Assembly (NCBI RefSeq): GCF_051903065.1
Contig: NZ_CP178438.1
Strand: one strand, 5' to 3'
DNA: 64,000 bases
Source of the DNA: Escherichia coli
GTDB taxonomy: Bacteria > Pseudomonadota > Gammaproteobacteria > Enterobacterales > Enterobacteriaceae
In this document: positions 56,709 to 57,988 of the stretch, piece by piece
Numbering within the stretch: the first letter of the stretch is position 1
Layout: each line of letters opens with the position of its first letter
The notes under the pieces: generated by a model
What the model saw: the letters and a program-made list of their open reading frames with translations, nothing else
Database searches by the model: none
Told to the model about the DNA's origin: nothing
Translations under genes and position numbers: made by a program

Positions 56709-56789
56709 ATGGTGACAATAAATAACGCAAGAAAGATTCTACAACGTGTCGACACTCTTCCTCTTTATTTACATGCTTATGCCTTTCAT
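56709..56789 (+). pseudogene. 27-codon 5' stub of a gene (yihM-like by position) truncated by IS1
   Basis: ATG at 56709 opens frame MVTINNARKILQRVDTLPLYLHAYAFH that runs directly into IS1 left end at 56790; identity as yihM is positional inference only. Confidence 0.45.
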
Positions 56790-56844
56790 GGTGATGCTGC
56801 CAACTTACTGATTTAGTGTATGATGGTGTTTTTGAGGTGCTCCA

Positions 56845-57120
56845 GTGGCTTCTGTTTCTATCAGCTGTCCCTCCTGTTCAGCTACTGACGGGGTGGTGCG
56901 TAACGGCAAAAGCACCGCCGGACATCAGCGCTATCTCTGCTCTCACTGCCGTAAAACATGGCAACTGCAGTTCACTTACACCGCTTCTCAACCCGGTACG
57001 CACCAGAAAATCATTGATATGGCCATGAATGGCGTTGGATGCCGGGCAACAGCCCGCATTATGGGCGTTGGCCTCAACACGATTTTACGTCACTTAAAAA
57101 ACTCAGGCCGCAGTCGGTAA
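56845..57120 (+). CDS. insA: IS1 InsA
   Basis: Identical 91 aa protein to copy 1. Confidence 0.95.
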
Positions 57121-57542
57121 CCTCGCGCATACAGCCGGGCAGTGACGTCATCGTCTGCGCGGAAATGGACGAACAGTGGGGCTATGTCGGGGCTAAATCG
57201 CGCCAGCGCTGGCTGTTTTACGCGTATGACAGGCTCCGGAAGACGGTTGTTGCGCACGTATTCGGTGAACGCACTATGGCGACGCTGGGGCGTCTTATGA
57301 GCCTGCTGTCACCCTTTGACGTGGTGATATGGATGACGGATGGCTGGCCGCTGTATGAATCCCGCCTGAAGGGAAAGCTGCACGTAATCAGCAAGCGATA
57401 TACGCAGCGAATTGAGCGGCATAACCTGAATCTGAGGCAGCACCTGGCACGGCTGGGACGGAAGTCGCTGTCGTTCTCAAAATCGGTGGAGCTGCATGAC
57501 AAAGTCATCGGGCATTATCTGAACATAAAACACTATCAATAA
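57039..57542 (+). CDS. insB: IS1 InsB
   Basis: Identical 167 aa protein to copy 1. Confidence 0.95.
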
Positions 57543-57557
57543 GTTGGAGTCATTACC

Positions 57558-57988
57558 CAGATCGTATAGGTCAAAAAAGTCTGTATTTGTCGGGAGCAGG
57601 ATTTTGTGTCCTGTTCGCGTTTCCTTTCTTCTTATTACTGGATAGCAAAAGTACGCTCATCATCTGGTGCAGTATGATCCTCGGCTACAACTTAGGTCCG
57701 ACGATGATGTTTGCCGTGCAGCCAACACTTTTCACCCGCATGTTCGGTACCAAAGTACGATATACCGGCCTTTCTTTTGCTTATCAATTTTCCGCGATTC
57801 TTGGCGGACTAAGCCCCCTTATCGCCTCAAGTTTGCTGGCGCTAGGGGGAGGAAAACCGTGGTATGTCGCTCTGTTTTTATTTGCTGTCTCAGTTCTTTC
57901 CTTTGTTTGCGTCTGGCTGATTGAGCCGACCGATGAACAAGAAACCGCTTCTTACCGCTACATCAGGGAACAATCTCATGAAAACTGA
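57558..57988 (+). pseudogene. 3' fragment of an MFS-type transporter gene (YihN-like by position), 5' end removed at IS1 junction
   Basis: Frame is open from the IS1 boundary (…DRIGQKSLYLSGAGFCVLF…) through hydrophobic helices to stop at 57986-57988; ORF track 57587..57988 is the internal TTG-initiated part. Confidence 0.7.

Follow-up and report, generated by a model that had tools for sequence, protein, structure and literature searches.

Sequence evidence for a 9,628-bp deletion bounded by an intact IS1 copy at the yihL-yihX locus of Escherichia coli

The yihL-yihX locus of one Escherichia coli genome (NCBI RefSeq assembly GCF_051903065.1, contig NZ_CP178438.1) raises the question of how an intact IS1 element comes to lie between two truncated genes with no target duplication beside it. 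The locus lies in a stretch of 64,000 nucleotides, hereafter the window, which contains two IS1 copies (Table 1). The initial annotation, made from the letters of the window, read the second copy as the mark of an IS1-associated deletion. We compared this copy and its flanks with uninterrupted alleles of the locus and with other IS1 insertions in complete E. coli genomes.

Table 1. Positions of the two IS1 copies and of the genes around copy 2 in the window
Feature	Position	Strand	Basis or location
IS1 copy 1 with 9-bp duplication	39371-40156 (IS1 39380-40147)	-	in yihF
yihL, GntR-family regulator, intact; last intact gene left of the deletion	55991-56701	+	ORF; RefSeq annotation of identical genome
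yihM 5' stub, nt 1-81 (27 codons) of a 981-nt gene	56709-56789	+	alignment to K-12 and strain 48
IS1 copy 2 (IS1A type), intact	56790-57557 (768 bp)	+	terminal repeats, ORFs, RefSeq annotation
MFS2 3' fragment, nt 920-1350 of a 1350-nt gene	57558-57988	+	alignment to strain 48
Aldose 1-epimerase gene, intact; first intact gene right of the deletion	57978-58865	+	RefSeq annotation
yihX, conserved right boundary gene of the variable yih locus	59006-59605	+	annotation, K-12 alignment

Copy 2 has the length of an IS1 family member and both of the imperfect terminal inverted repeats of ~23 bp, with the left repeat (IRL, GGTGATGCTGCCAACTTACTGAT) at 56790-56812 and the right repeat (IRR, ATCAATAAGTTGGAGTCATTACC) at 57535-57557. 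Its reading frames are present (insA at 56845-57120; the insB' frame running to 57542), as is the A6C motif for programmed -1 frameshifting (TTAAAAAAC, at 57094), and RefSeq annotates the element in an identical genome as an IS1A transposase with a programmed frameshift. Copy 1 is 100% identical to copy 2 and lies 16.6 kb away in the opposite orientation. It is a simple insertion that splits yihF, a DUF945-family gene, and a perfect 9-bp target duplication surrounds it (CCAGGCCAG at 39371-39379 and 40148-40156). In contrast, the 9 bp to the left (GCCTTTCAT) and right (CAGATCGTA) of copy 2 match at one of nine positions, and a search of its junctions for direct repeats of 4 to 14 bp, cryptic duplications included, returned none, in agreement with the initial description of the flanks as unrelated. 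Since copy 2 lacks the 9-bp (sometimes 8-bp) duplication, its junctions point to a secondary rearrangement rather than to a different kind of element.

Both genes that abut copy 2 are incomplete. On the left, the frame that had been seen to stop after 27 codons is yihM, of which exactly 81 nt remain: K-12 and the left flank are 99.1% identical, in an alignment that ends at yihM nt 81. On the right, a transporter frame without its native start is open from 57560 to a stop at 57988, also as originally described, but its implied identity as yihN did not survive comparison. Neither the DNA nor the protein of the right flank has similarity to K-12 yihN, and only the end of this flank, from just upstream of yihX, matches K-12. 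This alignment had been proposed in the initial annotation, and its outcome led us to reject yihN as the truncated transporter. The gene encodes a different MFS protein, seven genes further on, and the name yihN should not be carried over to it in annotation. It is referred to here as MFS2; MFS1 and MFS2 are our labels for the two MFS transporter genes of the short yih allele. The full-length MFS2 protein scores below the curated cut-offs of the two models that it hits, TIGR00883 (metabolite/H+ symporter) and a shikimate-transporter-like model, and is predicted to be a metabolite/H+ symporter-type transporter. Its gene is the second-to-last of the short yih cassette, the alternative allele carried by ATCC 8739, Nissle 1917, and strain 48. 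The epimerase gene that follows has lost its upstream operon partners; its product is 27% identical to K-12 YihR over 164 amino acids. RefSeq records both the yihM and the transporter stubs of an identical genome as partial pseudogenes.

The closest uninterrupted allele, that of strain 48, was used as the reference. Its flanks are 99.68% and 99.71% identical to those of the window, and this difference of about 0.3% means that the nearest intact relative is not a direct ancestor; its YihL is 100% identical to that of K-12 at the amino acid level. The left flank can be aligned as far as reference position 2187 (yihM nt 81), and the right flank from 11816 onward (MFS2 nt 920, which is base 2 of codon 307). 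The two flanks keep their strand and order, with 9,628 bp between them, and a genome-wide search gave an equal extra span in an uninterrupted genome relative to the window. This separation, together with the lack of a direct repeat, contradicts the possibility, raised in the initial annotation, that the flanks are contiguous apart from an overlooked duplication of 8 to 9 bp. Missing from the window are 900 nt of yihM, the whole of yihN, the genes for a regulator, a kinase, a reductase, an aldolase, a dehydrogenase, and MFS1, and 919 nt of MFS2. The loss therefore comprises nine genes or gene parts, with the whole short yih cassette among them, and extends through about 9.6 kb into MFS2 rather than being confined to the yihM-yihN region as first assumed.

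The closest intact relatives carry the lost segment as one uninterrupted piece with no IS1 inside, and full-length alleles of both truncated genes are found in hundreds of genomes, relative to which the genes are cut mid-codon. Copy 2 joins yihM nt 81 to MFS2 nt 920 flush at both IS ends and without microhomology. No similarity was detected between the deleted-side reference sequences of the two breakpoints, and a 6-nt match of deleted-side sequence to the IS1 ends is no more than chance would give (P about 0.10). Nothing elsewhere in the window matches the lost segment. The three complete genomes that share the junctions of the window (see below) were not among the best 40 matches to the segment, where any copy in them would be expected to rank given that it would match at about 99.7%; this is indirect evidence that they lack it. 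With the flanks collinear and far apart in the uninterrupted allele, the proposed IS1-associated deletion is upheld: the window almost certainly bears a 9,628-bp deletion bounded by an intact IS1 element.

The deleted DNA belongs to a locus known to vary among strains. Kaznadzey et al. (2025; PMC12608037) described a short yih cassette that replaces the long ompL-yihOPQRSTUVW cassette of K-12 at the same site and in reversed orientation; these two forms are the only ones reported there, and IS1 is not mentioned. In the intact loci of ATCC 8739 and strain 48, yihL, yihM, and yihN (forward) are followed by genes for a DeoR regulator and a sugar kinase (reverse) and then by those for a YihU-like reductase, an aldolase, a Zn-dependent dehydrogenase, MFS1, MFS2, and an aldose 1-epimerase (forward), ahead of yihX. 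The cassette spans 1750-10308 of the extracted ATCC 8739 locus and 2879-11437 of that of strain 48. Amino acid identity to the K-12 proteins is 72% for the regulator (CsqR), 68% for the kinase (YihV), 72% for the reductase (YihU), and 67% for the aldolase (YihT), and the YihU-like reductase scores above the NCBIfam cut-off for sulfolactaldehyde 3-reductase. Beyond these yihTUVW-like genes, the short cassette of ATCC 8739 and strain 48 contains the Zn-dependent dehydrogenase (interrupted by an internal stop in strain 48), the two MFS transporters, and the distant YihR-like epimerase, with no YihQ or YihS homologue. Its substrate appears to be uncharacterized. The right flank, comprising the 3' end of the transporter gene and the epimerase gene, was detected in 1,384 of 5,426 complete E. 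coli genomes, including ATCC 8739, Nissle 1917, and ST131 strains. The DNA lost from the window fits this description (PMC12608037) in occupying the slot between yihL/M/N and yihX and in containing yihTUVW-like genes reversed relative to K-12. However, all of these yihTUVW-like genes are absent from the window, where the cassette region is reduced to the epimerase gene and 431 nt from the 3' end of MFS2. Unlike either published form, the locus is an IS1-made null allele, missing yihN and most of yihM as well; its gene content marks it as derived by deletion from the short yih cassette allele and not as a member of it.

Both junctions were recovered as single uninterrupted alignments in three of the 5,426 complete genomes: 23CRST027 and 23CRST031, from human feces in Ecuador, and ECNB21-M121, from meat in China. 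They match the window at 100% identity over 18.6 to 20 kb. Because identical junctions are present in three independently assembled complete genomes, the allele is clonally inherited and not an assembly artifact. When the query included IS1, about 28 to 37 matching places, mostly IS1, were found in each carrier. In the record of 23CRST027, both IS1 copies are annotated as "frameshifted," at 697 nt versus 698 nt, and they are intact in the window and in ECNB21-M121; the 697-nt copies are probably a homopolymer error of that assembly.

Mobile elements were also seen in other parts of the window. An IS3-family element with the two expected ORFs lies on the minus strand at about 34398-35755, between the 5S rRNA gene of an rrn operon and mobB, and is annotated as IS1397 in 23CRST027. 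Downstream of fabY (about 62305-64000), a partial hypothetical gene is followed by a transposase gene that runs past the end of the window in the annotation of the matching genome, and ECNB21-M121, otherwise 100% identical, stops matching at about 62,627, which suggests that this region is another variable, mobile-element-associated spot. Separately, a 48-nt imperfect inverted repeat (29067-29114 and 30739-30786; 77% complementary) brackets the 16S rRNA gene annotated at 29201-30742; by its position we take it to be the known 16S rRNA processing stem, an ordinary feature.

IS1 has struck the yihL-yihX locus repeatedly. The left end of an IS1 element lies within about 650 bp downstream of yihL in 32 of the 5,426 complete genomes, most of which, among those inspected, have deletions with different right endpoints. 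In 2015C-3121, a simple insertion at yihM nt 80, in the same orientation as copy 2 and with a 9-bp duplication (TGCCTTTCA), leaves the cassette intact; its IS1 differs from that of the window at two positions. In 21EVA, a different IS1 isoform is joined at yihM nt 75 to a deletion that runs into the epimerase gene. With the junction of the window at nt 81, three independent events fall within 7 bp, which marks this site as a hot spot; it lies in a stretch (yihM nt 1-150) of 34 to 38% GC, compared with 51% for the window. Further IS1 junctions in the 5' part of yihM occur at about nt 121, 137, 222, 241, 246, 367, 420, and 573. The junction at nt 222 belongs to a K-12-type lineage that shares the YihL protein of the window and is combined there with three nested right endpoints, in yihQ (LD27-1), yihR (HL15), and yihS (EC-07). 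Elsewhere, yihM nt 121 is joined to MFS2 nt 800 (1008S19), yihN nt 174 is joined to MFS2 nt 683 (2022CK-00450), an inverted IS1 at the start of yihN is joined to the last 327 nt of MFS2 (MB56), and two IS1 copies share the locus, one in yihN and one in yihR (HS30-1). Every IS1-containing yihL-yihX locus that we inspected represents a different event. IS1-bounded loss does recur at this locus. No relevant paper emerged from a literature search that combined yihM, yihN, and IS1.

IS1 reportedly promotes adjacent deletions, as Reif and Saedler are said to have described for the gal region in 1975, and replicative intramolecular deletions by IS1 are likewise said to have been described by Turlan and Chandler in 1995. 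The window resembles such adjacent deletions: the IS is complete and abuts its flanks directly on both sides, no target duplication is present, and in the uninterrupted allele a long stretch of DNA separates the collinear flanks. In a related lineage, nested endpoints extend from a fixed IS junction. It differs in being a natural chromosomal allele for which no direct progenitor was found in the complete genomes and metagenome contigs searched. More generally, an IS without a duplication can result from adjacent deletion, from recombination between two IS copies, or from insertion that coincides with deletion, and progressive adjacent deletion, extended stepwise, has been seen in experimental evolution (PMC11708052). 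At this locus, all three origins would give one and the same final sequence, and the nested endpoints combined with the yihM nt 222 junction follow the progressive pattern.

We favor, with moderate confidence, an adjacent deletion that started from an IS1 first inserted in yihM. The ancestor would have carried the short yih cassette allele from yihL through yihX. A simple insertion of IS1 at the AT-rich hot spot (yihM nt 72-81) would have duplicated GCCTTTCAT, after which the IS1 transposase may have acted on the right (IRR) end and transposed it replicatively, within the same molecule, into MFS2. Such an event would keep the IS in place, release the intervening DNA as a non-replicating circle, and leave unrelated flanks; the endpoints seen today may stem from more than one deletion step. 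The preference rests on parsimony and analogy. This route would require two events, compared with three for recombination between two IS1 copies, and the simple insertion in 2015C-3121, 1 bp away, resembles the presumed progenitor state. The 21EVA junction in the same hot spot (nt 75-81) and the nested endpoints that extend from the fixed nt 222 junction in a related lineage also argue for it. None of the 5,426 complete genomes contains the exact progenitor, in which GCCTTTCAT would stand on either side of an IS1 at yihM nt 81. Metagenome contigs were scanned for both possible simple-insertion progenitors, again with no match, a weak negative given that contigs from short reads usually break at IS copies.

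RecA-dependent recombination would yield the same final sequence, so the sequence cannot separate it from adjacent deletion. Here, two direct IS1 copies, one at yihM nt 73-81 and one at about MFS2 nt 920, each with its own duplication, would have crossed over and thereby removed 9.6 kb and one IS1 copy. Double insertions are plausible given the many IS1 places in the carrier genomes, HS30-1 shows that two copies can share the locus, and recombination between IS copies is a frequent cause of missing duplications (PMC11708052). The 100% identity of the two copies in the window is also compatible with this history, although it makes a test for a chimeric IS uninformative. Against it stand the third event that it requires and the failure to find, in the complete genomes or the metagenome scans, IS1 at either position flanking an intact cassette. 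In addition, the cassette of the closest intact relatives is free of IS1, and no inspected locus has two direct IS1 copies bracketing intact DNA. We therefore consider recombination a plausible but rather unlikely source of the allele.

Clearly less probable still is an origin either by adjacent deletion in the opposite direction, from an IS1 resident in MFS2 whose IRL end attacked the yihM hot spot, or by a one-step insertion of a new IS1 copy with deletion that left no duplication. The hot spot at yihM nt 75-81 would draw an intramolecular attack as readily as a primary insertion, and some IS movements have been argued to coincide with large deletions and to leave no duplication (PMC11708052). 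However, an IS1 with a duplication in MFS2 was not found in the complete genomes or the metagenome scan, and the right endpoints in MFS2 differ in every independent deletion inspected (nt 683, 800, 920, and about 1024) whereas the left ones cluster in yihM; in the related nested series, it is again the left junction that is fixed.

That there was no deletion at all, the window reflecting an inversion between its two IS1 copies (mechanically possible for identical inverted copies 16.6 kb apart), an assembly artifact, or a natural alternative allele, can be practically dismissed: copy 1 keeps its duplication, which would have been split by an inversion; between the copies, 44000-56789 (the greater part) is collinear with other genomes and the rest (40148-44000) is annotated in the K-12 gene order yihF-yihG-polA in the 23CRST027 record; and the shared junction in three independent assemblies and the mid-codon truncations also speak against this reading. 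The same pair of identical inverted copies could mediate inversion of the polA-glnALG-typA segment, although none is present here.

The favored adjacent deletion from yihM involves a known mechanism; the locus is an ordinary IS1-associated deletion and leaves current understanding unchallenged. Taking the window together with the other IS1 events at the locus, we tentatively propose that the AT-rich 5' end of yihM, most markedly nt 72-81, is an IS1 hot spot from which recurrent, independent IS1-bounded deletions may arise in IS1-rich E. coli lineages, affecting long and short (sulfoquinovose-type) cassettes alike. Such deletions may constitute a third, "null" class of allele, possibly favored by selection against an unused cassette. 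The recurrence itself is a modest population-genomic observation.

IS-driven gene loss is known in IS-expanded lineages of E. coli and Shigella. The genome studied here is similar to these in its high IS1 load and in the pseudogene stubs that abut IS copies, and differs in that the loss described concerns a single locus. As a result, the genome of this strain carries no yih cassette, whether long or short; yihL and the epimerase gene are left as orphans, and phenotypes tied to the short yih cassette, yihN, and yihM would be absent. The locus is an example of accessory sugar-catabolism genes being eroded as IS1 expands, and it adds an IS1-made null class to the dichotomy of long and short cassettes.
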